A stretch of 54,750 nt of DNA from the IMG/VR virus record IMGVR_UViG_3300044695_003103, positions 1 to 54,750 of that record, one strand, 5' to 3'. The notes beneath the pieces were generated by a model. It ran no database searches. It was given only the letters and a program-made list of their open reading frames with translations, and was not told the DNA's origin. Origin of the DNA: a virus (taxonomy: Duplodnaviria; Caudoviricetes). The translations under genes and the position numbers were made by a program. This document shows, one piece after another, positions 4,866 through 25,692 of this stretch (within the stretch, counting starts at the first letter, position 1; every line of letters starts with the position of its first letter).

Positions 4866-6161
4866 ATGTGTATCGCAATTCTAAACAAGGTTGGTACTTT
4901 ACCTAAAGAGTACATTCAAAATTCATGGGACAACAATTATCACGGTGCTGGCTTTGCCTATTCCGATGGTGCTAAGATCGTAGTCCATAAGCAAGACAAG
5001 GACGTTGATTCGTTCTATAAGAAGTATGTTAAGGCTCGCAAGAAGTTTCCTAATGCATCGTTCCTCATTCACTTTCGTATCTCAACGCATGGTACGATTA
5101 GCTTGGACAATCTGCATCCCTTTGTTGTAGGCGATGTGGCTGTCATTCACAATGGCATGGTAGATTTAGAGGGGCATTCAACTACTGACAAGCGTTCTGA
5201 TACTCGCTATCTATGTGAGGAGATACTTGCTAACTTGCCTTATGGTTGGCAGCACAGCGTAGGTGTTCATCGGTTCATGGAGAACATTGCAGGTTGGTCT
5301 AAGTTTGTGTTCCTCGATGTAGATAACAATGACTATATCATCAATGAGGATGAAGGTCATTGGTTCGAAGGTAATTGGTATAGCAACAATAGCTACAAGC
5401 AAGTCAATCGCTACGTTGATTATGGTGGTAAGAAAGTTGAGCGTACAAGTATGGGGTATGGTTCTTATGGTTCATCTGCTGATGCTGATTGGGATGATTA
5501 CAATAGCTACAATAAAAGTTATTCATCAACCAAATCGACTACGCCAAAGACAAGTAGTACGGTCAGCGTACCGGTTACAACTATTAAGTTGATTGAGGAC
5601 TATATACAAAAGAATAAGATTGTAGACAGATTCAACTCATGCTTCAGTGCGTATGTAGATAAGGACTTAGCCGACCAAGCTGCTGTTATTGACGAATGGT
5701 TCTACCATGATAATATGAGGTTAAACACATGGTATCACTTGGGTGATGATAAGACAGATAAGACTGAGCGCTATGAGTTATGCGTAATAGAATACAATGA
5801 TAAGATGTACACATTGATTGGTAGACCTAACTCAACCACACAGAATTATGTGTATGTATTCCCATTCGCTATTCGCCACGAAAGTTTGGTTACTGGATTG
5901 CTTACTGAGTTTGCTGTAAACAAGATGTATGAAACTGCATCACAGAAGTTTGAGCGTGTTATGGATGATAACTATGTACTCATTCAAGAGGCAATGGGAG
6001 TAATGTATGACTACCATATGGACGACGAAGCTGTATATGGAACTTGTGATTCTTGTATGGACCAAGTAAATATAAAGGAGTTGAGTCCTATTGAGATTGC
6101 TCCCGAATACTACGCTTGTAAGTCTTGTAAGAAAGAATCATTTGAGCCAGCACCTTTTTAA
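4866..6161 (+). CDS. class II (Ntn) glutamine amidotransferase with C-terminal Cys-motif extension
   Basis: MC N-terminus, HGAG, HFRISTHG, NLHPF, HNG, SDT motifs; C-terminal CxxC...CxxC. Confidence 0.85.
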   Translation: MCIAILNKVGTLPKEYIQNSWDNNYHGAGFAYSDGAKIVVHKQDKDVDSFYKKYVKARKKFPNASFLIHFRISTHGTISLDNLHPFVVGDVAVIHNGMVDLEGHSTTDKRSDTRYLCEEILANLPYGWQHSVGVHRFMENIAGWSKFVFLDVDNNDYIINEDEGHWFEGNWYSNNSYKQVNRYVDYGGKKVERTSMGYGSYGSSADADWDDYNSYNKSYSSTKSTTPKTSSTVSVPVTTIKLIEDYIQKNKIVDRFNSCFSAYVDKDLADQAAVIDEWFYHDNMRLNTWYHLGDDKTDKTERYELCVIEYNDKMYTLIGRPNSTTQNYVYVFPFAIRHESLVTGLLTEFAVNKMYETASQKFERVMDDNYVLIQEAMGVMYDYHMDDEAVYGTCDSCMDQVNIKELSPIEIAPEYYACKSCKKESFEPAPF

Positions 6162-6187
6162 TTAGTAATGTTTGTTTGTTTAGTGGG

Positions 6188-6216
6188 AAGCCCTGCCTAT
6201 ATGGTGGGGCTTTTTT
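6188..6216 (+). terminator. intrinsic terminator
   Basis: AAGCCCTGCC/GGTGGGGCTT stem followed by T-tract. Confidence 0.7.
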
Positions 6217-6248
6217 ATTGAACGCTTAACCTTTTAATATTTTTCACA

Positions 6249-6638
6249 ATGAAGAAATCAACCAAAGTAAAATTGAGTATCGCTGACTTTCGTGTTAGCA
6301 AGCAATCACAACTACGCGACAACTTGATTCGCAAGTATCCTCGCATCAGCAAGTTCACTTGCTATAACGATTCAACAACTTATCAGGAGGTTCCTATTAT
6401 CACAGCGCAAGTATTGATTGACAGACTTGCTCCTTTGTTTTGTACTGAGAAGATAAGAGAGAGAGTAATGTTATTCGCTGTTGAGTATGTAGAAACGCAC
6501 GGCATCGAGCAATACGATAACGATGTGTTTCTTTATCGTGACTTTCTTATGAATGTTATCAGTGCGCAGCTTCATATCTTTTGTGAACGCGACTATGTTT
6601 TCATTAAGCAAAATGTTCATCTATCATCAACTTTGTAA
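6249..6638 (+). CDS. hypothetical protein
   Basis: ORF in co-oriented run. Confidence 0.65.
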   Translation: MKKSTKVKLSIADFRVSKQSQLRDNLIRKYPRISKFTCYNDSTTYQEVPIITAQVLIDRLAPLFCTEKIRERVMLFAVEYVETHGIEQYDNDVFLYRDFLMNVISAQLHIFCERDYVFIKQNVHLSSTL

Positions 6639-6651
6639 ACTTTTTTCAATC

Positions 6652-6900
6652 ATGCAAAATACTAAAACACCAGCTGCCTTAAAAGAAAGGTACGACAAAG
6701 CTATTGCCGACTTACAAATGAACGAGTGGAACTCTTCATGGTGTGAGATAATAGACGAATGCAATGGTAACTATTTCCGCGCAATGAAAGTCTTGCAGAA
6801 CGACTTGGAGAGTGCCATAAGCCAAAACTGGTTTGTTTGCCGTCCAGCATCTAACTTCTACAAATCAATTCTTGAAACACTAACAACTAAACAACAATAA
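6652..6900 (+). CDS. hypothetical protein
   Basis: ORF; likely start MQNTK at 6652. Confidence 0.6.
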   Translation: MQNTKTPAALKERYDKAIADLQMNEWNSSWCEIIDECNGNYFRAMKVLQNDLESAISQNWFVCRPASNFYKSILETLTTKQQ

Positions 6901-6901
6901 C

Positions 6902-7120
6902 ATGGAAAAACAATTCTTAATGAAAGATATTTCCGGACGTGGTTACACACGCTGCCTCTCTGAAGATGAAATAAAAGAAACATTCAAAGATGCTGAAGGT
7001 GTTGATGATGTAAATATAATCGATGAACTTCTAACACTTGGTGTTGGAGATGAATACGACTTGGATGAATGGTGCATGAATTCTATGTGGAACGCAACAA
7101 TAATAATTCGAACTAAATAA
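6902..7120 (+). CDS. small acidic hypothetical protein
   Basis: tightly packed ORF. Confidence 0.65.
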   Translation: MEKQFLMKDISGRGYTRCLSEDEIKETFKDAEGVDDVNIIDELLTLGVGDEYDLDEWCMNSMWNATIIIRTK

Positions 7121-7127
7121 CAATAAC

Positions 7128-7457
7128 ATGGAAAAACTAAATCAGATTATTGAGTCAATGGCTTTGGCTCAATTCAAGGCAGACACACAAGGAACCGAAA
7201 AGCGAAATGCATTTATGCTGAAACACGCAGAACTTGGTGAGTTTATGAAATTCTTTAATACAAGGGAGGCTGGAAACGGAGAAGTTTATGCAATTCAATA
7301 CCATGATATTAAACTTGGAAGTATGCAAGGACTTACTGAAACATTCATCCGTGAAGTTTTATGGCCTAAAATGAAGGATTCGTATATCGAAACCGTAGTA
7401 AAAGGATTAGAGAACAAGTTGGAATCTACTTACAAAATAACAATTGAGCAACTATGA
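7128..7457 (+). CDS. hypothetical protein
   Basis: tightly packed ORF. Confidence 0.65.
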   Translation: MEKLNQIIESMALAQFKADTQGTEKRNAFMLKHAELGEFMKFFNTREAGNGEVYAIQYHDIKLGSMQGLTETFIREVLWPKMKDSYIETVVKGLENKLESTYKITIEQL

Positions 7458-7675
7458 GCAAAATAGAAGAAGCAAAAGCAATCCTGCGAGATGCAGGTTA
7501 CTTTGTCGATAACCTATGGATGACAATAGATGTAACAGATCGGTACGAATGTGATGCCGAAACTGCACAAGAGATTCTTGACAGCGCTCTAACACACCCA
7601 TACATTGTAGAAAGAATATTTGAGGTGATTAATGAAAGGGCAGAAGAACTTGAACTAAAAGAAAAGGAGGACTAA
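7454..7675 (+). CDS. small acidic hypothetical protein
   Basis: ATGA overlap with previous stop. Confidence 0.65.
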   Translation: MSKIEEAKAILRDAGYFVDNLWMTIDVTDRYECDAETAQEILDSALTHPYIVERIFEVINERAEELELKEKED

Positions 7676-11625: not shown

Positions 11626-12753
11626 ATGTCAAACAATGTAGCTGTACAACAGCAAAGCAACAAGCCTTCGGTTAAGGCTTTATTTGAAAGACCCGATGTG
11701 GGTAAACGATTTGCAGAGGTGCTTGGTAAACGTGCGCCACAATTCGTAACAAGTATATTACAGTTGGCAGCAAGCGATAAGATATTGGCTGTCGCTGATC
11801 CATACACCGTGTATAACGCAGCAATGACTGCTGCATCGTTAGACCTTCCGGTAAATAAGAATCTTGGGTTCGCTTGGATTATTGGATACAAGAATAACTT
11901 TAAGCAAACTACTGAGGCGCAGTTTCAATTGGGGTACAAAGGATACATTCAGTTGGCTCAACGTACAGGTCAGTACTCAAAGATTAACTGCGTTGAGGTA
12001 TATGAGAATCAGTTCAAGAGTTGGAACGCATTGACCGAAGAGTTAGATGCTGACTTTAGTTCTGAGGGTACTGGTAGGGTAGTTGGTTACTGCGGTTTCT
12101 TTAGACTACTTAATGGCTATGAAAAGACTGTGTATTGGTCCAGTGAGAAAGTTAAGGCACACGCCACACGATTCAGCAAGAACTTTAAGTTTAATGACAG
12201 CACTTGGAAAACAGACTTCGATGCGATGGCTAAGAAAACTGTGCTGAAGAATATGTTATCTACTTGGGGTATCCTATCTGTTGAATTACAGAACGCGCTC
12301 AAGGTTGACCAAGCGGTAATTAAGAATGAAGAAGAGGTTGAGTATCCTGACTACCAAGATGCCAACGTAATTAGCAAGGAAGAAGAAAGGATGATGCAGA
12401 TGATTGATGCTGCTCAGACAGAGGAGGAGTTGAATGCTTTGGTTCCTCATATGATGGAGTCAATGGGTGAGCGATTCAGAAATAAGATGGAGCAGATTCA
12501 AGCAGCAAAGCCAGTTGTTGTTGAGCCGGTGAAGGAAGAGAAGAAGGCTACCAAGAAGCAACAAGACCATCCGATTGAATACTTCAAAAGCTTGGTAGAT
12601 AATTGTAAGTCTTATAAAGACTATGAGAGCCTACAAGAACAAGCGAACTCTCAAGAGAAAGTTGATTACCTCAACGCCAAGATTGATGAATTTGTAAATG
12701 CCGAAATGGAAAAACAAACTAAATCAACAACTGCTGATGGAGAACTTTTCTAA
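11626..12753 (+). CDS. recT: RecT-family single-strand annealing recombinase
   Basis: LGFAWII, AQFQLGYKGYIQLAQRTGQY, WKTDFDAMAKKTVL motifs. Confidence 0.9.
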   Translation: MSNNVAVQQQSNKPSVKALFERPDVGKRFAEVLGKRAPQFVTSILQLAASDKILAVADPYTVYNAAMTAASLDLPVNKNLGFAWIIGYKNNFKQTTEAQFQLGYKGYIQLAQRTGQYSKINCVEVYENQFKSWNALTEELDADFSSEGTGRVVGYCGFFRLLNGYEKTVYWSSEKVKAHATRFSKNFKFNDSTWKTDFDAMAKKTVLKNMLSTWGILSVELQNALKVDQAVIKNEEEVEYPDYQDANVISKEEERMMQMIDAAQTEEELNALVPHMMESMGERFRNKMEQIQAAKPVVVEPVKEEKKATKKQQDHPIEYFKSLVDNCKSYKDYESLQEQANSQEKVDYLNAKIDEFVNAEMEKQTKSTTADGELF

Positions 12754-13609
12754 TTTCTTATTTAGATGTAGTTCTTTGGGAAAGATAATGACCAATCCCC
12801 AAGGCAAAGGTGTCCGTGATAAAATCGCGGATGCCGAAGCTTTGGTCTTGAAACTGCGTTCTGAATTAGAATCTGCAAAGCCAGGTCTAAAGACAACGGA
12901 AGCGAAGAAGGATAAGTTGAGATTGTTATTGTCTGATTTAGAGAATCTTTACACACGCAAAGATGAAGTAAACCTTTCACTAACTTGCCGTAACTATTTG
13001 ATTGACTTATATGTTGAGTCTAAATATGGTAGGTCTAAGAACATTTCGAATAAGTACATTGAGAAAGGATTGCAGGTCGAAGAAGATTCGATTACTCTAT
13101 TATCATTGACTGAGAAGAAGTTTCTTACTAAGAATACGCTTCGCCTTAACAACGATTACGTTTCCGGTGAACCCGATGCTTTCTTTGGCGAGGATATCTT
13201 TAGGGCTGAATGCATTTATGATACAAAGAGTTCTTGGGATTTGTTCACGTTCAGCCACAGCAAGTATGGTCAAGACATAAATCAAGATTACTATTGGCAG
13301 TTACAGGGATACTCTGATCTAACCGGTTGCTCCAGTCTTGCATTGGTTTATTGCTTGGTTAATACTCCAATGCCGTTGATTAATTCAGAGATACAAAGCA
13401 CATGGTATAAGATGGGATGTCCTGCTGAAGATAGCGGTATCTATATTGAAACCTGTGCTGCCATCGAGAAGTCTATGACTTACGATGATATACCAAAAGA
13501 GGAACGCATCAAGATATTCCCAATAGAAAGAGATACTGATGCAATAGACAAGATGCATGAACGCATTTTAGAATGCAGACATTACATGAATCAAACATTT
13601 AACCAATGA
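12737..13609 (+). CDS. YqaJ/lambda-type PD-(D/E)xK exonuclease
   Basis: FRCSSLG, KGLQVEE, SGEPD, YDTKSSW, YYWQLQGY; adjacent to RecT. Confidence 0.8.
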   Translation: MENFSNFLFRCSSLGKIMTNPQGKGVRDKIADAEALVLKLRSELESAKPGLKTTEAKKDKLRLLLSDLENLYTRKDEVNLSLTCRNYLIDLYVESKYGRSKNISNKYIEKGLQVEEDSITLLSLTEKKFLTKNTLRLNNDYVSGEPDAFFGEDIFRAECIYDTKSSWDLFTFSHSKYGQDINQDYYWQLQGYSDLTGCSSLALVYCLVNTPMPLINSEIQSTWYKMGCPAEDSGIYIETCAAIEKSMTYDDIPKEERIKIFPIERDTDAIDKMHERILECRHYMNQTFNQ

Positions 13610-13986: not shown

Positions 13987-14320
13987 TGTTCCGTTTGAAA
14001 CAACTCCTGAAGGGGCAAGCTATGAAATGTTTGAGCAGTCTTGGTATTCGCTTCCATTTGGAAAAGAAACAGGATCAATCGACACGAAGAAGCTTTGGTG
14101 GAATCTATTGTCTTGGAGCGAACAAGGCAATACCTATAAGAATTGGATGGCAGCAGCCAGGACTTTCTATTTAAAATCACCTCATCAATATAGGATACAT
14201 GGAACAGCAGCAACACAACAAGCAATTGAGTTCAACCTCACAAATCAGCAAGTATCAGAAGCCAGAGGAGCAGACTATTTCATTCCCGAACATCTCCGCA
14301 ACAACGATAGGGGTAATTAA
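13958..14320 (+). CDS. replication-associated protein (tentative)
   Basis: WS..G..YKNWMAAARTF resembles phage replisome-organiser C-termini. Confidence 0.4.
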   Translation: MRKSKQKKDDVPFETTPEGASYEMFEQSWYSLPFGKETGSIDTKKLWWNLLSWSEQGNTYKNWMAAARTFYLKSPHQYRIHGTAATQQAIEFNLTNQQVSEARGADYFIPEHLRNNDRGN

Positions 14321-15068
14321 GAATGCAATAGATATTCCCATTCGGGATGAGTTGCGTAAGTTCCCTGAGAAACTAATACGAGATGCCACTACAATTATTG
14401 GCGAGGTGTTAGTTGCTTACTGCGGTGCGACATCCGATGGTACACATTCCGGTGTAGTATCTGAATGCGTAGCGTTAATGACACATAAGTTTTCTCATCT
14501 GTCAATCTATGAGATACGTGAAGCGTTTAGATTGGCTGCGGTAAATCAGATTGATGTTAATCTAACTGCATACAAGGGTGTTGCTACCGTTTATGTATTC
14601 GGTCAAGTAATGAGTGCGTATGATGAATTGCGTAGACCAGTTGCCCACAAACTTAAAGTCGTTCCGGTAGATACGGAAGAAGATGAGAAAGAGGTTGAGC
14701 GTAAACGTAATGAGTACAATCAAATGGTTGTTGATTGGTACAACAAATCAATCGAAACAAAAGGTGCTTCAATCAGGTCAATTGATGATATACCATTTTA
14801 CTACTACGATACATTGTCTGAACTTGGCTTACTGCAAATTGATATTGACACCAAGAAGATGTACATGGAGAAGGCAATCATCCTATTGAAGAATAAGTTT
14901 CAGTCCTCCAATTCTAACTTGGATAAAGAGGATAGGCAGTTCGTTCGTTCTGTATCAGAGATTGGTCCAGTGCAAGCTTACTTCGCTTCAACCAAATCAC
15001 AGCAATCAGAAACAATATCGCTTGCGAAGAAGCTATATCTGTTCGACACAATAAAAGCAATTAACTAA
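14199..15068 (+). CDS. hypothetical replication-region protein (helicase-loader-like, tentative)
   Basis: position; LSIYEIREAFRL...FGQVMSAY pattern. Confidence 0.4.
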   Translation: MEQQQHNKQLSSTSQISKYQKPEEQTISFPNISATTIGVIKNAIDIPIRDELRKFPEKLIRDATTIIGEVLVAYCGATSDGTHSGVVSECVALMTHKFSHLSIYEIREAFRLAAVNQIDVNLTAYKGVATVYVFGQVMSAYDELRRPVAHKLKVVPVDTEEDEKEVERKRNEYNQMVVDWYNKSIETKGASIRSIDDIPFYYYDTLSELGLLQIDIDTKKMYMEKAIILLKNKFQSSNSNLDKEDRQFVRSVSEIGPVQAYFASTKSQQSETISLAKKLYLFDTIKAIN

Positions 15069-15081
15069 AACAACAATAACT

Positions 15082-15270
15082 ATGAGAACTAAAATCTATT
15101 TGATGGCGATTGTATTCGCCCTAACATCTTGCTCTAAAGAAGAATCTGACTCTACCTATTCAGGATGTCCAACCACATCTGCTTGCGGATGCTCCGGTAA
15201 AACTAAATCCGAGTGTGAATCAAGCCCCTGCTGCAAATGGACAGTTGGTCAAGGATGCGGTTGCCGCTAA
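15082..15270 (+). CDS. Cys-rich small lipoprotein
   Basis: lipobox ALTSC; 8 further Cys in 45 residues. Confidence 0.7.
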   Translation: MRTKIYLMAIVFALTSCSKEESDSTYSGCPTTSACGCSGKTKSECESSPCCKWTVGQGCGCR

Positions 15271-15393
15271 CGTTCCCACGCTTGGCGAAGAAGCGGACTT
15301 GGAAGCACAGACTTTCAGTTTAGCACGAACACAAATAGAAAGCACGAATGTTAAATTTAGCACTAAACCCGCTTTTTTGCCAAACGTGTGTTA
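15268..15393. repeat. attC-like hairpin site 1
   Basis: TAAC-GTTCC-CACG-C-TTGGCGAAG-AAGCGG...CCGCTT-TTTTGCCAA-A-CGTG-T-GTTA. Confidence 0.8.
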
Positions 15394-15494
15394 TGTGTAG
15401 TTGCGGTTTAATAGCAGAAAGTTAAATTTGAAACGAGATACTTTTTCTTTTCTTTTTTGAGCGATGGCAAAAATAAATTTAAAAAATTAAAAAT

Positions 15495-16073
15495 ATGAGT
15501 TTACAGACAGTAACAGAACAAGGAGATGAATATTACACTCCAAAATACATAGTAGAAATACTTGTGCCTTTTATGAAAAATAAGGGGTTTAAAACGATAT
15601 GGTGTCCTTGCGACAAGGAATGGAGTGAATATGTAAAAGTATTTAAACTTGAAGGGTTTAATGTAATATACTCACATATTGATAATGGGCAAGATTTTTT
15701 AAATTACGAACCCACAGAACAATATGATGCCATAATTACAAACCCACCATTTAGTATTAAAAACAAAATATTTGAAAGATGTATAGAATTGAATAAGCCA
15801 TTTTGTCTGTTGATGTCGGCTACTTCAATTCAAAGTGCAAGTTTTGTAAAGATAATTTCAAAGGCAAAAGATTTTAATGTAATGATGTTTGATAAGCGAA
15901 TATCATATAGCGGAGATAGACCACCATTCCCAAGTTGGTATTATGCAAGTGGCTTATTTGACAAAACAGAATTTTATATTTACAAACAAGACCCAAAACT
16001 CCTTTTTAAAGCGTGGGAAGAAAAAAGAAAAGAAAAAGAATTACGGGCAGGAACTTTATTTGAAACGGAATGA
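15495..16073 (+). CDS. DNA amino-methyltransferase (probably N6-adenine), cassette 1
   Basis: DEYYTP, IWCPCD, GQDF, ITNPPFS motifs. Confidence 0.85.
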   Translation: MSLQTVTEQGDEYYTPKYIVEILVPFMKNKGFKTIWCPCDKEWSEYVKVFKLEGFNVIYSHIDNGQDFLNYEPTEQYDAIITNPPFSIKNKIFERCIELNKPFCLLMSATSIQSASFVKIISKAKDFNVMMFDKRISYSGDRPPFPSWYYASGLFDKTEFYIYKQDPKLLFKAWEEKRKEKELRAGTLFETE

Positions 16074-16086
16074 TAGCAATTACACA

Positions 16087-16164
16087 TAACGTTTTCGGGC
16101 TTGGCGAAGTGGCTTTTGTGCGTTGGCTTGTGTGTCGGGAAGCCATTTTGCCAAACCCGTGTTA
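16087..16164. repeat. attC-like hairpin site 2
   Basis: TAAC-GTTTT-CGGG-C-TTGGCGAAG-TGGCTT...AAGCCA-TTTTGCCAA-A-CCCG-T-GTTA. Confidence 0.8.
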
Positions 16165-16210
16165 TATGCCGTTGCGGATTTTGAAACGAAAACTTAAATA
16201 AATAATAAAT

Positions 16211-16738
16211 ATGGGAAATGTAACTTACAAAAATCAACCTGCTATTGACAAGACAAAAGGAAGTGTGCCGTTGGCAGGAACGAGCCACATTTACAGAGTT
16301 AAAAAGAAACTTTGGAACGATAGCATTGAAGATGTTTTGCAGGGATTGTTTATTGGTAGAACATTGCACGTTTGTAGTGGTAAATCAATGCTTGGTGATG
16401 TTCGGTTAGATGCAGATGCTGAAAATAATCCTGATATAATTTGCGATGCTTCAAATATGAAAGACTTTGTAAAGGATAACGAATTTGAAACGGTTATTTG
16501 CGACCCGCCATACAACGGAAAGTTTCAATGGAATCACGATTTACTAACTGAACTTTCAAGGGTAGCAAGTAAAAGGATTATTTTTCAGCATTGGTTTATA
16601 CCTGCAAATCCATCAGGGACATACAAAAAGGCACAAGAGAAGTTTCTTTTGTCTGATGTATTAGTGTGGCAACCTAAAACTTACTTTGGTCGGGTGCAGG
16701 TTGTTTCAGTTTTCGATGTCGTTAGCAATGGCATATAA
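16211..16738 (+). CDS. DNA amino-methyltransferase, cassette 2
   Basis: LHVCSG motif I, PDIICDA, VICDPPY motif IV. Confidence 0.8.
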   Translation: MGNVTYKNQPAIDKTKGSVPLAGTSHIYRVKKKLWNDSIEDVLQGLFIGRTLHVCSGKSMLGDVRLDADAENNPDIICDASNMKDFVKDNEFETVICDPPYNGKFQWNHDLLTELSRVASKRIIFQHWFIPANPSGTYKKAQEKFLLSDVLVWQPKTYFGRVQVVSVFDVVSNGI

Positions 16739-16752
16739 CTCTCTTATACACG

Positions 16753-17397
16753 CTAATTCGTAGCGCGTACTACTCCAGCACCAACAATAATACCTAACCC
16801 GAACTTGAAAGCGGTGGTTTCATACCATCGCTTTTTTTCTTTTATGACTATGTTTGACATCCCATCAAGCTGCATAGTAGGGTTGTCTATCTTCAGGAAT
16901 AGCACCTTATCCTTCTTACCAAGAACTTTATTGAAGAAGCCGGAACGTAATGTATCCCCAATGGCGTATGTTAATGATGCGTGGCTAACTAACGAATCAA
17001 TTTGTAGTTTACCAAATCGACTTATCGTACCTCCCATCTCAAACCACTTGTCCTTCACATAGAATGTACGAGGCAGCTTTACGTAAGGCTGCTTATCAAT
17101 CATTACCGTATCTAACTGCACCTGTGTTTTTATAATTGTTTTGGTTTGAGTCTTAATAACCACTTCTGGATTTTTAATCCCAAGACTCTTTAACTCTGCA
17201 ATTTGCTTTTTCTGATTGATGATAGTAAGAGATTGAGAGTAAATCACTGACGAATCTTTAAGCGTTTTGCTTTTAAACTCCTGCTCTTTCAAAATAGCAT
17301 TTTCTTCTACGGCTAATTTAGTTCCGCACGTTGAAACAAGTGCTAACAGAAGTGCAAATATTACAAGGAAGTAGGTTATTCTTTCAGTGCTTTTCAT
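16753..17397 (-). CDS. spanin-like lysis protein (possibly unimolecular)
   Basis: N-terminal hydrophobic segment ending LVSTC, coiled coil, C-terminal TM FGLGIIVGAGVV. Confidence 0.55.
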   Translation of the reverse strand: MKSTERITYFLVIFALLLALVSTCGTKLAVEENAILKEQEFKSKTLKDSSVIYSQSLTIINQKKQIAELKSLGIKNPEVVIKTQTKTIIKTQVQLDTVMIDKQPYVKLPRTFYVKDKWFEMGGTISRFGKLQIDSLVSHASLTYAIGDTLRSGFFNKVLGKKDKVLFLKIDNPTMQLDGMSNIVIKEKKRWYETTAFKFGLGIIVGAGVVRATN

Positions 17398-17410
17398 AAG
17401 TAAATATACG

Positions 17411-18811: not shown

Positions 18812-19219
18812 TTACGCTATGTTTCTGAGGTCACTAATCAACGACTTCCATGCCGGCACACATCCAAGTGCATACTTAATGGTTAGCAACAAGGTAAATG
18901 TCAGCACTATGCCATTTGCGAGTATATCATAGTTCATAGGCGATTCTGTTTCTTCTTTTCTTACGGGTAAAGGCTTGGGTACGTAATACGTGCCTACCGT
19001 AAACAAAGATACATCACAAGGCTGAATTGTGTCGAATGCGGTTAAAACTTTTAAGGGCTTTGGATGCACGTAGCTTCCACTCATTACAGCCTCAAAGGAT
19101 TCCTTGTTCGCTATAATAAGCTGGCTATCCAAATCAACCTTTGGATGATATGCCATCGTATCAAGATTAATCTTGTTACGCCTAACAGTCTTTATTGTAT
19201 CTCGCCTAATCTGCTGCAT
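18812..19219 (-). CDS. C-terminally anchored membrane protein (lysis region)
   Basis: C-terminal TM ILANGIVLTFTLLLTI. Confidence 0.55.
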   Translation of the reverse strand: MQQIRRDTIKTVRRNKINLDTMAYHPKVDLDSQLIIANKESFEAVMSGSYVHPKPLKVLTAFDTIQPCDVSLFTVGTYYVPKPLPVRKEETESPMNYDILANGIVLTFTLLLTIKYALGCVPAWKSLISDLRNIA

Positions 19220-19409
19220 CGCTCTTTGCCTTTGGTATGTATCCTGCTGCGATTAGTGCAGCAATGATGGCTGTTAATGTTTCTGCGGTTATCACTTTGA
19301 ATATGAGTAAGAATATAGATGCTAAAATCATGAGCGAGCCTATTGTTGAACGCCAATGCTTGACGATTACATCAAGTACTTTACGTGATTTAGTAACCCT
19401 TCTCCTCAT
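19206..19409 (-). CDS. holin
   Basis: 67 aa, basic N-terminus, WRSTIG, two TM segments, next to lysozyme. Confidence 0.7.
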   Translation of the reverse strand: MRRRVTKSRKVLDVIVKHWRSTIGSLMILASIFLLIFKVITAETLTAIIAALIAAGYIPKAKSDAAD

Positions 19410-21554: not shown

Positions 21555-23165
21555 TTAATTAACAAATGTTATCCCCTGTGTTTCAGGTTTTGTTCCTGGA
21601 TTCCAATTCCGTGTTGAAGGGTCAATACCATTAGTTGTTCCTTGAAAACTCCATATTGTTTGACCAAAATCACTATCTATTGCTGTTGCACTTACATATA
21701 CCATAGATTGAGTTGCACCATTAACTAAAGTCCAAATAGCCAAGTCATAAGGTATTGTTAAATCACTTGACCTCATAAGTATTCTTTGAGCATTACTACC
21801 TAACATATTCACAGATGTAGTTGTGGTATATGTAATTAGGCTTTGTAGTGTTATTGTTCTACCTGCTGTTGAGCATATTAAATTTGCACAAGTCCAACCT
21901 GCTGTTCCTGCAAATACAACACTTCCCAAAGCTCCAAAAGTTAGATTACTCTGTATTGTATTAAGTACATTTTGGGTTATAGTTGGTAAATTAACAGGAC
22001 CGCAAGGAATAGTTAAGTTCCAAAATGTCATGTCATTAATTGTAACAGAAGAAGCATCTGCAAGTGTTATTGTTGATGTGCCTGGATTTATATTACCTGA
22101 TGTTCTTTGTAGTGTCCTGCCTGTTCCACCCCATGTAAAAGAGTTTAATGTAAGAGTAGCAATACCTGTTTTATTAATAGTTAAATTATTTTGAATACTA
22201 TTAATGGTAATAGAGGCGTTTGTAGAACCTTCCATTTGTATTGTTGCAGTACCACCTAATGTATTACCTGCTCCTGAAATATTTCCATAAAGAAATACTG
22301 TTCTTCCTACTCCATTAAAATTTCCAGGACCAGCACTAAAAGTCAAATTAGTGGTAATATATATATCTGAGTTTAGAGTTACAGATTGACCTCCGAGATT
22401 AACATTCCAATCAAATGCAAAAAAAGCTCTACTAATATTCCCCCAATTATTAAATACAGAAGTATTGGCTCCACAGGCTAATGTAGCTGTTGAATTGAAT
22501 GTACCATTTATATATGTAAAAATTATCCCGTTAAGTGAGAATGTTCCATTATGAGATATTGTACCTGCTGTATCAATTTCAATAGAACCACCACCTCCAC
22601 TTCCTGCACCTCCTGATAAATTTCCAGTGCCAGTCATTCTTATAGTTATGTTAGTAATAGTCAAACCACCAGTAAAGCTTCCCTGAACAGTTATAGTTCT
22701 AACTCCACCACTTCCTGTAATTGTATATGTATTTCCTCCTGTTCTTGATAGAGAGCCTACAATAGTCCAATTATCTGCGAAATTAGAACCAAAGCTAAAT
22801 GAACTTGGCGTAAATGTTATTCCTCCTGTATATGTCTTTCCATTCGATGTCCAAGTTCCTCCATTACCAGTTTTTATAATATTACCAGTTCCTGTAATAG
22901 TCATAGTACTTGAAAAGGTAAGACTACCTAAAACAGTCCAATTTGTAGCAGCATTTAATGTTCCTGTAAATAAAGCAAAATTAGCAGATAAACAAGTAGC
23001 ACCAGCTGTTGTTGTAACAGTTCCACTACCAGAACCTGCATCAAAAAACACATCATCTGCTGCTGTAGGAACACTAGTAGGATTTACTACTCCAGAACTT
23101 AATGACCAGTTAGCAGCAGTACTCCAATTGTTTCCAGTCCCTCCTATCCAATATTTATTAGGCAT
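21555..23165 (-). CDS. beta-helical tail adhesin/spike, paralog A
   Basis: NWS...VPTAADDVFFD N-terminus; C-terminus shared with paralog B. Confidence 0.65.
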   Translation of the reverse strand: MPNKYWIGGTGNNWSTAANWSLSSGVVNPTSVPTAADDVFFDAGSGSGTVTTTAGATCLSANFALFTGTLNAATNWTVLGSLTFSSTMTITGTGNIIKTGNGGTWTSNGKTYTGGITFTPSSFSFGSNFADNWTIVGSLSRTGGNTYTITGSGGVRTITVQGSFTGGLTITNITIRMTGTGNLSGGAGSGGGGSIEIDTAGTISHNGTFSLNGIIFTYINGTFNSTATLACGANTSVFNNWGNISRAFFAFDWNVNLGGQSVTLNSDIYITTNLTFSAGPGNFNGVGRTVFLYGNISGAGNTLGGTATIQMEGSTNASITINSIQNNLTINKTGIATLTLNSFTWGGTGRTLQRTSGNINPGTSTITLADASSVTINDMTFWNLTIPCGPVNLPTITQNVLNTIQSNLTFGALGSVVFAGTAGWTCANLICSTAGRTITLQSLITYTTTTSVNMLGSNAQRILMRSSDLTIPYDLAIWTLVNGATQSMVYVSATAIDSDFGQTIWSFQGTTNGIDPSTRNWNPGTKPETQGITFVN

Positions 23166-23407
23166 TACTCAATAGGCTTTTCCTCGTTAATAGGAAGTGA
23201 TGGTATTAGGTTAGCAATCTCTTGTTCTGCTTGTAGCCTTGCCACTTCAGAAGATGCTCTGTTGATGATGTTCTGCTCAATCTCCTCTTGAGATTTAGGC
23301 ATGAAATGAGGCACTTCTGTGGTAACAATAGTACCATCTAAGTTATACTCTACTGTAGTAATAAGAGTAATATCTGCCTGTCTTGAAGAAAGTATTTTAT
23401 ACGTCAT
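23165..23407 (-). CDS. small tail-fibre-associated protein/chaperone
   Basis: 80 aa, translationally coupled between fibre genes. Confidence 0.45.
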   Translation of the reverse strand: MTYKILSSRQADITLITTVEYNLDGTIVTTEVPHFMPKSQEEIEQNIINRASSEVARLQAEQEIANLIPSLPINEEKPIE

Positions 23408-25692
23408 GTTTTATTGATTGTCAATGTTAAGTTCACCCAACTAACTGTAAGCACACCTGATATAGTGAATCCTATGTAATCTCCTGCTGTGACTGCTACA
23501 GATAATCCAGTTGCATTTAGTTTATTTACGCCCGATAAAGCAGGTTGTGTAACAAATATGTTATCTGTTGGTGATGTAGGTGGGTAGTTGGCATAAGTAT
23601 CTTTAAACACAGTTACAGTACAATTTCCTGCCACATTAGCAACCAATGTCCATCCTGTTATTGTACCTGCATATGGCACTTGCACATAAGCAGTTTTACC
23701 ATTGCTGATTGTTCCTCCTTGACCATCAAATGTAACACCGCATGATCCTGTTTTTAATGAGGCAGGGGCAATGTCTATGACGTTCTTGTTCTTCCATAGA
23801 TTTGGTGTTCCTGTTTGGTATGATAATACTTGATTATTAGTGGGCAAGCTTGTAATCAAGTCTACGTCATGAAGCTCATTCAACTCATACCCATTCTGAG
23901 GCTTGACATATATCTGACCATTACCTGCATTAGCCCTTTCTACAATCCCTATATATACAAGATGGTTTGGAGCGTATGGCTTTGTTGATGTCAGTGTACC
24001 AGCCGTTGCTCCAAGATATAATTGCGCACCTGGACTATATGCTGCTGTGTTTACGCCCGATATAACTCCTTGCGTAATTATAAATCCCTTTTGATTTGGA
24101 GCTATACTTGAACTAAAAACAACGCCTACAGTCTGTGCGGAGGTGCTATCTGATGTATTGTTAGCCAACTTAACACTCATCCTATTCCCTGCTGCACCAA
24201 AGGCATATACAGGTTGTCCTTTATTAATGGTTACTGAATCATCGTTTGTAACATATGCAAACAATTGATTCGGAGCAACCCCTAAAGTTTGGAAGTGAGT
24301 GCCATCATAAATGATGATTAATTCTTGACCAGAAACAATATCTCCACCTGTTACCCTTATATTAGCCTGTTTTTCAAGATTCTTAGCACCAAGACCATTT
24401 ATATTTATAGATGAATCATCATCATTTCCATTAGTGAACTTAATTACATAAGTATCGCCATCTGTATATGATGTAACGCCTGTTATTGTTACGGCATATG
24501 TATTCGTTCCTGATGCTGTGCCTGACTTCAATCCACCACCTGTAGCATTTAATGTAGTGCCTGAAAGAGATAGATTAGTTCCTAACGTAATCTCCTCCAT
24601 AACCCCTACACCTGCCGTACCTCTACCAATTAGCTTATTGGTATTCATAGATGTAGAGATATCAGGTGTGGCTCCTCCCGATGAAGTTAATGGAGCTGTT
24701 GCAGTTACAGATGTAACGCCTCCACCTCCACCTGCTCCAACAAACAGCCTTCCTGTGTTATCTACGTTCAATACACCTACGGAAGAACCCGATGAGCCTT
24801 GAAATGCTGTAGCGGTATTATACAGATTAAGCTGCAATTGACCGCTATTTAGCATCCTCAATATCTCAGTAGATGATGCATTCGATATAATCATCGGAAT
24901 AGCACCCGAACTCGTAGACTGAATGAAGATACCAGTCCCGTTTGTTCCAGCAGCGATAATGTATGCGCTTATTGCTCCACTTGCTTCGAATCGTACTAAC
25001 TTATCTGTTGGAGAATATGTACCTGTAGTAGCCGTAAACTTAACCTTACCAGAGCCTCCTAATGGACCATTAGAATCAAACTGAAGATCGTGTGCCGAAT
25101 TAGATGGTCCAACATCTATGAACGTACTTTTTATTATACTGCCCCCTAATTCGAAGTTGGTTGGATTCCCAGACTCTGGCTGTACACCATTATTTGCAGT
25201 GTATGTTGGTATACTTATAGTCCAAGTCCTGTTCGCACTTAAATTCTGTGTAAGTCCGTTTATGGTTATTGTACGAGTGTTTGGTACGTAATTCAATAAA
25301 GCAGTAGCTATCTGAGATGCTATATAGGAAACCAAATCCGTTTGATTGGTTATAGTTCCGGTAATAAAACCCCAAACAGAACTTCCTCCACCACCACCTG
25401 GAATAGTTACATCTACACCATTTCCGTTCTGCGTAACATTTACACCTGCTCCTATAAAGTTTAAGAACTGAGCAGTAGTATCTATTATAACTCCCTCGTC
25501 CTGTACCTCAATAGTTGAACCACCTGAAATGATATTTAATTGGTCCTGTATCTGCCGTAAAAGCTGAGGCCAAGTAATAACTAAAGGCTTTGATAAATTG
25601 CTGTTCTGAACTACGATGAAAGTATGCTGACTGCCTAAAGCAATCCTAATGAAATCAGTAGTTTCTAATCCAGGACCAAGCGATTTTATCAT
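23404..25692 (-). CDS. modular tail fibre protein
   Basis: Gly linkers, WGFITGTITNQTDL, GVTSVTATAPL, ELNELHDV fibre motifs. Confidence 0.75.
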   Translation of the reverse strand: MIKSLGPGLETTDFIRIALGSQHTFIVVQNSNLSKPLVITWPQLLRQIQDQLNIISGGSTIEVQDEGVIIDTTAQFLNFIGAGVNVTQNGNGVDVTIPGGGGGSSVWGFITGTITNQTDLVSYIASQIATALLNYVPNTRTITINGLTQNLSANRTWTISIPTYTANNGVQPESGNPTNFELGGSIIKSTFIDVGPSNSAHDLQFDSNGPLGGSGKVKFTATTGTYSPTDKLVRFEASGAISAYIIAAGTNGTGIFIQSTSSGAIPMIISNASSTEILRMLNSGQLQLNLYNTATAFQGSSGSSVGVLNVDNTGRLFVGAGGGGGVTSVTATAPLTSSGGATPDISTSMNTNKLIGRGTAGVGVMEEITLGTNLSLSGTTLNATGGGLKSGTASGTNTYAVTITGVTSYTDGDTYVIKFTNGNDDDSSININGLGAKNLEKQANIRVTGGDIVSGQELIIIYDGTHFQTLGVAPNQLFAYVTNDDSVTINKGQPVYAFGAAGNRMSVKLANNTSDSTSAQTVGVVFSSSIAPNQKGFIITQGVISGVNTAAYSPGAQLYLGATAGTLTSTKPYAPNHLVYIGIVERANAGNGQIYVKPQNGYELNELHDVDLITSLPTNNQVLSYQTGTPNLWKNKNVIDIAPASLKTGSCGVTFDGQGGTISNGKTAYVQVPYAGTITGWTLVANVAGNCTVTVFKDTYANYPPTSPTDNIFVTQPALSGVNKLNATGLSVAVTAGDYIGFTISGVLTVSWVNLTLTINKT

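Follow-up and report, generated by a model that had tools for sequence, protein, structure and literature searches.

A two-cassette array of DNA methyltransferase genes in a tailed phage, read as part of an integron-type recombination system of Bacteroidota and their phages

Why should a phage carry two DNA methyltransferase genes in tandem, each preceded by a hairpin of the same unusual layout and each enclosed by its own pair of complementary 15-nucleotide (nt) repeats? The locus that raises this question occupies positions 15265-16756 of a 54,750-nt stretch of tailed-phage DNA (Duplodnaviria; Caudoviricetes), the whole of the IMG/VR virus record IMGVR_UViG_3300044695_003103, which has a CheckV completeness of about 40% and is called the window in what follows. 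We read it as a two-cassette array without an integrase, belonging to an integron-type site-specific recombination system that is native to Bacteroidota and their phages, and we put the probability of this reading as a whole at roughly 75%. It is carried by the anatomy of the sites and their covariation, by junctions that fall exactly at TAAC, by the finding, at this same locus, of both a different cassette and an empty site, and by a recombinase gene that adjoins such arrays elsewhere.

Both cassettes follow one plan, which can be read directly from the letters: TAAC, a hairpin bounded by G and T, GTTA with 11 further nt, a methyltransferase gene, and a complementary 11 nt that run into TAAC. 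Recombination site 1 (15268-15393, + strand) opens with TAAC and the unpaired pentanucleotide GTTCC, continues as an imperfect stem that is interrupted by a C.A mismatch and contains G.T pairs, and, past a loop of 84 nt, closes with T and GTTA; covariance model R1 matches it with 114.2 bits (E 8e-27). Site 2 (16087-16164, + strand) has the same architecture, with GTTTT as the five unpaired bases after TAAC and a 36-nt loop (60.5 bits, E 7e-13). The layout common to both is TAAC-GTTNN-4 bp-C.A-TTGGCGAAG...TTTTGCCAA-...-T-GTTA, in which the conserved arm TTGGCGAAG pairs with TTTTGCCAA, G.T pairs included, and is followed by another, covarying segment. Where the stems differ between site 1 and site 2 they do so on both arms, CACG/CGTG against CGGG/CCCG and AAGCGG/CCGCTT against TGGCTT/AAGCCA. 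On the same strand, cassette 1 opens with the flank repeat GTTATGTGTAGTTGC (15390-15404, G at position 11) and closes with GCAATTACACATAAC (16076-16090, TAAC at its end), and cassette 2 opens with GTTATATGCCGTTGC (16161-16175) and closes with GCAATGGCATATAAC (16725-16739); each pair forms 14 Watson-Crick pairs and one G.T pair. A first-pass annotation of this DNA, made from the sequence alone, had described two hairpins of one layout, covarying stems and gene-enclosing 15-bp inverted repeats, and all three are confirmed at these coordinates.

Within the window this arrangement occurs only here. A scan for flank pairing returned the two cassettes on the + strand and none on the - strand, and searches with the hairpin arms gave two exact copies only (five matches at up to one mismatch in one search, two of them exact, and two matches in another). 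A third covariance-model match, at 776-880 (16 bits, E 0.23), lacks the flank signature and is probably due to chance, as is a candidate hairpin of the form TAAC...GTTA at 19183-19276 (RNA folding energy -30 kcal/mol), which also lacks it.

The same anatomy is found in a set of 152 distinct inter-cassette sites. In 145 of these TAAC is followed by G, and in 151 GTTA is preceded by T. Positions 6-25 of the inner stem are 77% paired in register with positions -2 to -21, compared with 40-51% when the register is shifted, and at most positions of the inner stem three or four kinds of Watson-Crick pair occur. A C.A mismatch occupies 10/-6 in 84 sites, and G.T pairs are seen at 16/-12 (67 sites) and 19/-15 (112 sites). 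For 61 diverse sites RNAalifold predicted 22 pairs, of which 17 have compensatory changes. Folded as single-stranded DNA, site 2 of the window reaches -19.3 kcal/mol on the + strand and -14.7 kcal/mol on the - strand, and it folds better than all of 200 shuffled sequences (z -3.28).

The flank repeats add a second layer of pairing, and one that is specific to each cassette. Among 108 sites with a downstream TAAC, the best closing 15-mer pairs with the opening flank at all 15 positions in 46 cases, at 14 in 26 and at 13 in 15. At least 13 of 15 positions therefore pair in 87 of the 108, compared with 18 of 107 when flanks were swapped between sites, a control that gave no pairing at 15/15, five cases at 14/15 and 13 at 13/15. 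The first-pass annotation had proposed that the two ends of a cassette would complete its hairpin only when brought together in an excised circle, and the energies agree with the flank pairing on this point. With the closing flank of each cassette placed before its own hairpin, as in a circle, the mean energy falls from -18.0 to -26.4 kcal/mol (DNA parameters); in 84 of 86 cassettes this circle form lies more than 2 kcal/mol below the array form, and in 83 of the 86 it is the strand bearing the G.T pairs that folds more stably. The strand preference suggested in the first pass agrees with this last figure; single-strand folding itself would be a step of the proposed mechanism.

Formulated as a signature (GTTA plus 11 nt pairing with 11 nt plus TAAC over at least 14 of the 15 positions, position 11 being a G that faces T), this flank pairing was detected 403 times in 158 of 259 loci, compared with 12 times in reversed-sequence controls. 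Dropping the G.T requirement raised the number to 712; the additional 309 pairs were not inspected singly and should mostly be the same cassettes on the other strand. Once overlaps were removed there were 387 cassettes in 226 arrays, in 158 loci. Single cassettes make up 119 of these arrays, and 71 arrays have two cassettes, 27 have three, six have four, and one each has five, six and ten, the last being the maximum. The median cassette length is 534 nt, and site lengths cluster at about 41, 64-70, 80-86 and 111-122 nt.

How does the locus itself vary among relatives? On its left is an open reading frame (ORF) of the phage backbone (15082-15270, + strand; 62 residues, Cys-rich and lipoprotein-like, with no Pfam or PHROG match), whose stop codon coincides with the TAA in the first TAAC. 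On its right the array ends in a terminal motif without a hairpin, TCTCTTATACACGCTAA (16740-16756, + strand), and meets a convergent backbone gene (16753-17397, - strand) for a 214-residue protein that has weak DUF6549 similarity and is not a recombinase. A direct repeat, CGCTAA, has its left copy at 15265-15270 (+ strand) and its right copy at the end of the terminal motif, and the crossover would fall at TAA/C, the slash marking the cut. In the viral contig L004, which has a flanking gene 98% identical in protein, the DNA is near-identical to the window up to GGTTGC.G.TAAC. Past this TAAC the divergence is complete: there is a short, different hairpin, then a Mom-like DNA-modification gene (PHROG 1384, 1e-41) closed by its own flank pair, GTTACCTGCTGGTGC / GCACTTGCAGGTAAC, then a hairpin of the site-2 type, and then the contig end. 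In locus L005, where the flanking gene is 55% identical in protein, a single unrelated cassette ending ..CCGCTAAC TCTCTTATAGCCGCTAA sits at the same place, and the terminal motif of the window is conserved.

An empty form of the locus is seen as well. Contigs from four other lake or freshwater metagenome runs (X2-X5) were aligned to positions 14200-17400; uncovered stretches in X3-X5 carry no evidential weight. Contigs of X4 and X5, from two studies, join position 15264 to 16753 with only AA between them, skipping 1488 nt, and the X4 contig (4676 nt) has 18 differences over 1314 aligned bases. Judged by their sequence, these contigs are an empty site in a very close relative. The empty junction reads GGTTGC-AACTAA/TTCGTAG and the occupied one GGTTGC-CGCTAA/C-GTT..two cassettes..TAAC-TCTCTTATACACGCTAA/TTCGTAG, so that a TAA precedes the break at either end of the extra DNA and the C counts as part of it; the terminal motif is missing from the empty-site contigs. 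Relatives with other cassettes, or with none, had been named in the first pass as what a cassette system should leave behind, and L004 and the X4 and X5 contigs supply one of each.

Other contigs of these runs point the same way. Contig depth in X2-X5 is several-fold higher over both hairpins (recorded at 16087-16173), and the points at which numerous contigs part from the window sequence are precisely 15385-15388, 16086-16090 and 16164-16173, which shows that the same hairpins occur in many other contexts in these lakes. A nucleotide search with the window cassettes found shared hairpins and leaders; it did not find the same methyltransferase genes elsewhere. Among distant relatives of the right flanking gene (L006-L020, 30-49% protein identity), no array was recorded by an energy-threshold hairpin scan, a method that missed most true sites and was replaced by pattern, flank-pairing and covariance-model searches. 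In L006-L018 a conserved 51-nt hairpin, TAAC ATCTTGCC...GGGAGGT GTTA, lies about 0.5 kb from the DUF6549-like gene; it is unrelated to the array sites.

The orientation of the genes distinguishes phages from bacteria. On viral contigs 244 cassettes have their gene on the site strand and three on the opposite strand; on bacterial genome contigs the corresponding numbers are 11 and 82. The arrays of bacteria thus follow the canonical order of integrons, the gene before its site, and their foldable strand is the non-coding one; phage cassettes are inverted, with the site upstream of the gene and the start codon sometimes in the loop. Of the two ways in which the first-pass annotation had set these sites apart from canonical attC, the asymmetric bulge of five nt against one is retained, and the hairpin upstream of the gene is a trait of the phage arrays only. 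The strand bias tracks the site and not the gene, which makes it a property of the DNA and weighs against a purely mRNA-level explanation.

That explanation would treat the hairpins and repeats as RNA or regulatory elements, active in processing, as terminators or as start-codon loops, with the genes being shuffled by ordinary homologous or RecT/ERF-mediated recombination between the conserved hairpins, on the model proposed for the stem-loop cassettes of T4-type phages. It can draw on the facts that in phages the wobble-rich strand is the mRNA strand, that start codons lie within hairpin loops, that the arrays adjoin RecT/ERF and exonuclease genes, and that the sequence of the hairpin arms is highly conserved; what we take to be a Bacteroidetes-type -7 box (TAnnTTTG) also follows site 1. 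The relatives, however, break exactly at TAAC, outside the shared hairpin homology and with unrelated flanks, and the flank repeats covary cassette by cassette and make sense only when the ends are joined. The bacterial sites are antisense to their genes (82 versus 11), and a tyrosine recombinase is found at array ends. Rfam also offers no match: for the window no family reached its gathering score, and at E values up to 1 only chance-level hits appeared, to MIR844 (27.6 bits against 70) and SNORD77. We regard this explanation as distinctly improbable.

Start codons within the loop are found in locus L005 (3153-3587), in L043, L139 and L003 (23143) and in many methyltransferase ORFs. In such cassettes the 3' arm, GTTA and the flank are translated, so that unrelated enzymes share an N-terminal peptide, for example ..PFCQTRVSGS.. 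Long loops also contain an AGCAC(N)AA box that recurs two to four times at a spacing of about 20 nt in many sites, including the window (loop 15303-15366); from its sequence, this box may be an accessory-protein binding site or a promoter element.

Which enzyme would act on such sites? The first-pass statement that no tyrosine recombinase is encoded in the window is correct, in that a profile search of the whole, about 40%-complete record found no PF00589 member. When all ORFs of the array-bearing loci were clustered, one family of tyrosine recombinases emerged outside the cassettes. Such a gene starts within 1 kb beyond seven of 43 clearly terminal array ends and beyond four of 107 ends that lead into a further hairpin (11 of 150 in total); at array starts, none of 152 has a tyrosine recombinase gene ending within 1.2 kb upstream. 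In the phage contigs L030, L053, L130 and L138 the gap to the recombinase is 37-53 nt and the gene lies on the cassette strand, and in L053 and L138 it is followed by a terminase gene. In Flavobacterium silvisoli (L262) a 580-residue recombinase is followed by an ORF with a reverse-transcriptase domain and then, as far as the contig reaches, by 14 or more signature cassettes; this ORF (6145-7674), the first past the recombinase, matches RVT_1 at 7e-13 and may be a defence-type gene heading the array. In Flavobacterium denitrificans the recombinase adjoins a thiamin pyrophosphokinase gene, which indicates a chromosomal setting.

The array-end enzymes are of Xer type. For ten of them the best model is NF040815 (XerA/integron-integrase), with 155-222 bits against a cut-off of 220 that one of the ten passes; they also match XerC and XerD models. 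The integron-integrase model TIGR02249 gives 116-214 bits against a cut-off of 265, in two stretches that omit model positions of about 180-238. The closest solved structures are XerA (4a8e, 3e-37; 5hxy) and XerD (1a0p), with IntI4 (2a3v) matched in two stretches, and the recombinase core measures 266-294 residues. The gap in the model match and the proximity to XerA and XerD together indicate Xer-like enzymes without the IntI-specific insertion. The first pass had advised looking for a co-occurring IntI-like recombinase, and this expectation holds as far as a tyrosine recombinase at array ends is concerned; its IntI character does not.

The array ends themselves have a consensus, TAAC/Ta.tataTAtaCGcAa over 59 distinct ends, which the TCTCTTATACACGC of the window fits. 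This terminal motif may be the counterpart of attI, an attI-like or dif-like site with a double-stranded core whose left arm would come from the last cassette. It also bears on a different possibility, namely that the XerC/XerD of the host, as housekeeping enzymes, recombine the sites with no dedicated enzyme, in the manner of elements that exploit host Xer (IMEX), such as those of the CTX-phi type, the flanks (..CATAAC / GTTATG..) and the terminal motif imitating dif. We take the flank arms and the terminal motif to resemble E. coli dif (CATAA-6 nt-TTATG), the dif of that species being the only one considered. Such a scheme would suit the 28 of 30 near-complete array-bearing phage records that have no tyrosine recombinase, as well as the Xer-like nature of the array-end enzymes (XerA 4a8e at 3e-37, XerD 1a0p). 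It has to contend with the distinct recombinase gene that stands at array ends in phages and chromosomes alike, and with the many sites per genome (up to 35, in F. silvisoli), which would compete with dif. We consider it unlikely.

The association with a tyrosine recombinase also separates the cassettes from single-strand transposons of the IS200/IS605 type, whose Y1 transposase, of the HUH class, inserts 3' of a fixed tetranucleotide. Two properties are reminiscent of such elements: the sites are strand-biased DNA hairpins, and each unit follows TAA(C) and ends in TAA(C), which would make tandem insertion natural. There is only one hairpin per unit, however, rather than one at each end. Among the 45 commonest ORF clusters of the 158 loci there is no transposase-like family, a survey in which PF01797 was not searched directly, and the ten common neighbour clusters that were scanned are YqaJ, NinG, ERF, gp3, DUF3127 or of no known kind; the recurrent neighbour is the tyrosine recombinase. 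A transposon of this type is therefore a very remote prospect.

Returning to an integron-type system, we envisage the following mechanism. The mobile unit would extend from the C of one TAA/C to the TAA of the next and comprise a site, the 15-nt flank led by GTTA, a single gene and then the complementary flank. Excision as a circle would bring the two flanks together, and with the hairpin they could then fold on one strand, here the + strand, into a long imperfect stem. This stem would consist of an outer helix of 15 bp in which position 11 is a fixed G.T, a bulge of five nt against one, and an inner helix with a fixed C.A mismatch and G.T pairs. A Xer-like tyrosine recombinase, whose gene adjoins the array end in some phages and in Flavobacteriaceae chromosomes, would cut at TAA/C; its partner in the strand exchange would be either a second site of this kind or the terminal motif TAAC-N5-6-TATAnnCGC. 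As the window encodes no recombinase, the enzyme would have to act in trans, from the host, a prophage or a co-infecting phage; the first-pass proposal of a system driven in trans fits the 28 near-complete site-bearing phage records in which tyrosine recombinases are likewise absent. For the phage, the use of such a mechanism may be to load and swap counter-restriction genes, in this case two DNA methyltransferases.

Several observations weigh against this interpretation. Site 1 on its own folds no better than shuffled sequences (z -1.34; 21 of 200 fold as well), and in the array form the strand bias is modest (-15.6 against -14.3 kcal/mol, the sense strand being favoured in 83 of 103 sites). 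Compared with classical attC sites, the hairpins are much more strongly conserved in sequence, and start codons often lie in the hairpin loop, which suggests that the site may also serve gene expression. The empty and occupied forms of the locus differ by the whole array and its terminal motif, not by a single cassette, and the comparison concerns one locus and gives no direction, insertion or deletion; the position of the cut at TAA/C is our inference from the sequences of this one comparison. No circle or excision junction appeared among the aligned contigs, a kind of data that cannot reveal rare forms, and circular intermediates are likewise deduced. The recombinase is near only seven of the 43 clearly terminal array ends, and only two of the 30 near-complete phage records with a site have any tyrosine recombinase, the window having none. 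Finally, all loci were collected starting from one hairpin family, which biases the counts towards that family.

The sites are very widely distributed. In cultivated phages, a blastn search with the region matched site 1 at 74% identity in the Flavobacterium psychrophilum phages 6H, 2A and FPSV-D15/D17/D35. The covariance model places five sites in FPSV-D15, with complementary flanks on each cassette, and phage 6H is without two cassettes that are present in FPSV-D15, the breakpoints falling exactly at TAAC/. The FPSV-D15 cassette at 23079-23412, which might seem to have no inner hairpin, is given a full site at 23075-23200 by the covariance model, with the ORF start in the loop. The pattern TAACGT-N6-GCTTGGCGAAG matched at least 120 stretches in IMG/VR and at least 120 in GTDB species genomes, and 114 of 130 pattern sites have the matching 3' arm and GTTA. 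Among the GTDB matches listed, most are from Flavobacteriales, Chitinophagales, Cytophagales, Saprospiraceae and Sphingobacteriales; by our estimate a few dozen chance matches are expected in that collection, and the entries from outside Bacteroidota are probably these. The scan of Bacteroidota by covariance model that the first pass had suggested gave, at E 1e-6 or better, at least one site in 111 of 151 sampled species genomes from the family of F. silvisoli, with up to 35 sites per genome in F. silvisoli itself. A PF00589 recombinase of any kind is present in eight of 50 site-bearing records, and absent from Polaribacter phage P12002L. In the methyltransferase region of that phage a strict flank-pairing scan found nothing; on reading its intergenic DNA we find TAAC-hairpin-GTTA sites between the methyltransferase genes, with weaker flanks and in some cases CAAC in place of TAAC.

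A broader proposal can be built on this distribution. Bacteroidota would have a hitherto unrecognised integron class of their own, defined by a Xer-like enzyme without the IntI insertion, a 15-bp outer helix and a fixed G.T, with sites in 111 of 151 sampled Flavobacteriaceae genomes; phages would have taken over the sites with the genes reversed, so that the strand that recombines is the coding one and the site also becomes the leader of the gene, and, with a recombinase mostly borrowed in trans, would draw on a shared pool of cassettes for counter-restriction and other kinds of counter-defence. We hold the chances that all of this is correct together to be about even.

What do the cassettes carry? 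In the window, the gene of cassette 1 (15495-16073, + strand) encodes a 192-residue N6-adenine-type DNA methyltransferase with an NPPF motif, matching PHROG 799 at 7e-31; its Pfam matches, to EcoRI_methylase (26.7 bits against a cut-off of 26.4) and N6_Mtase, are both weak. The gene of cassette 2 (16211-16738, + strand) encodes a 175-residue DNA methyltransferase with a DPPY motif, its stop codon being the TAA of the closing TAAC; it matches PHROG 3816 at 5e-8 and PHROG 11619 at 4e-6, and a Pfam scan gave no match. Both proteins thus combine motif IV, (D/N)PP(Y/F), with a family-model match, as is expected of DNA methyltransferases. Elsewhere the hairpin stands beside unrelated genes, as the first-pass annotation had anticipated, in 284 distinct same-strand cassette ORFs. 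In 150 of these, taken at random and scanned against Pfam, we found N6_N4_Mtase in 21, MT-A70 in five, C-5 DNA methylase in four, Mom and Cons_hypoth95 in two each, a TET-associated glycosyltransferase in one, and a few others. About three quarters of the scanned ORFs have no Pfam family, and those that can be named are mostly DNA-modification enzymes. The stop codon coincides with the TAA of the closing TAAC in 69 of 292 cassette ORFs.

Some further features of the cassettes and their surroundings may be recorded here. Inside the 15-nt flank pair of each window cassette there is a second complementarity between leader and 3' end, in cassette 1 between 15438-15458 and 16021-16041 (21 nt, 95%, low-complexity and A/T-rich) and in cassette 2 between 16187-16201 and 16701-16715 (15 nt, 87%). 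The string (A/T)ATTTGAAACG occurs four times, at 15425 and 16178 behind the two opening flanks, at 16057 towards the end of gene 1, and at 16482 within gene 2; similar strings, GAAACG(A/G)AA, are seen at cassette ends of FPSV-D15. Upstream of the array, at 11626-13609, are genes for a RecT-family annealing protein (4e-41) and a RecE-like or PHROG 5715 exonuclease, and in other phages the commonest array neighbours are YqaJ, ERF, NinG and DUF3127 genes.

How close is this to a known integron? The likeness extends to single-gene cassettes of about 0.3-2 kb in tandem arrays; to imperfect palindromes, ..TAAC / GTTA.., that fit RYYYAAC / GTTRRRY at the conserved letters; to an outer helix that the two ends of a cassette complete only once joined; and to the unpaired bulge between outer and inner helices, the variable loop and the strand bias. 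The proposed AA/C cut would equal G/TT, there is a distinct terminal site, a tyrosine recombinase gene lies beside some arrays, and bacterial arrays have the order gene then site. There are also differences. The enzyme is Xer-like and has no IntI-specific insertion, the outer helix has 15 bp with a fixed G.T in contrast to 7 bp, no extrahelical bases are seen in the sites, which have fixed C.A and G.T positions instead, the hairpin arms are strongly conserved in sequence, and in phages the gene points the other way with respect to the site, in whose loop it may begin. A complete integron, with an adjoining integrase that has the IntI-specific extra domain, is found neither in the window nor, judging by the ten array-end enzymes scanned, in the related arrays. 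With two sites 819 nt apart and no tyrosine recombinase in the window, the array would be classed as a cluster of attC sites lacking integron-integrases (CALIN), provided that the sites count as attC-like.

Two phage systems offer partial parallels. In CTX-phi, XerC/XerD integrate folded single-stranded phage DNA at dif, so that there, too, a Xer-family enzyme acts on a hairpin of one phage strand with a single strand exchange; it is a whole phage genome that enters dif, however, and not tandem single-gene cassettes. In the promoter-stem-loop (PeSL) cassettes of T4-type phages, small accessory genes lie between repeated stem-loops and their content varies among relatives, the exchange being thought to use homology between the stem-loops. 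In contrast, the breaks described here are at a fixed tetranucleotide, the complementary flanks are cassette-specific, and a tyrosine recombinase is associated.

Integrase-less attC clusters with methyltransferases have in fact already been published for one phage, Polaribacter phage P12002L (PMC9892861). Applying IntegronFinder and HattCI to 10,705 phage genomes, Qi et al. (2023) detected 17 CALINs, an association that they called infrequent; the CALIN of P12002L has two methyltransferases, and IntI1 recombined one of its sites with attI1, with a bottom-strand preference. It resembles the array of the window in being an integrase-less cluster of attC-like sites with DNA methyltransferases, in this case in a Flavobacteriia phage. 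The paper treats the sites as ordinary attC and does not describe the family or its flank signature, nor does it report the terminal motif or any cognate recombinase. The P12002L sites that we read are likely to be those tested by Qi et al. For Bacteroidetes, the IntegronFinder 2 preprint (10.1101/2022.02.28.482270) gives only In0 elements and, later, a single complete integron, in Salinibacter ruber. Our full-text searches for a cassette or integron system of Bacteroidota or Flavobacteriia found no description of a Bacteroidota-specific one, PMC9892861 being the only relevant paper.

The window appears, then, to hold an ordinary member of a large and largely undescribed family, and the family to be a new variant of the integron principle. 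Four traits appear to distinguish it: a recombinase of Xer type, an outer helix that is extended and has a fixed G.T, strongly conserved hairpin arms and, in phages, inverted genes. Integrons have been held to be nearly absent from Bacteroidetes and rare in phages, and these results point to a large cassette system there. A system with its own site grammar and a simpler, Xer-like recombinase bears on the origin of IntI from Xer, and also on the precise uptake of single accessory genes by phages. The TAAC-hairpin-GTTA arrangement with complementary flanks provides a practical marker of accessory genes in the genomes of Bacteroidota phages, and suggests where new counter-defence genes might be sought.

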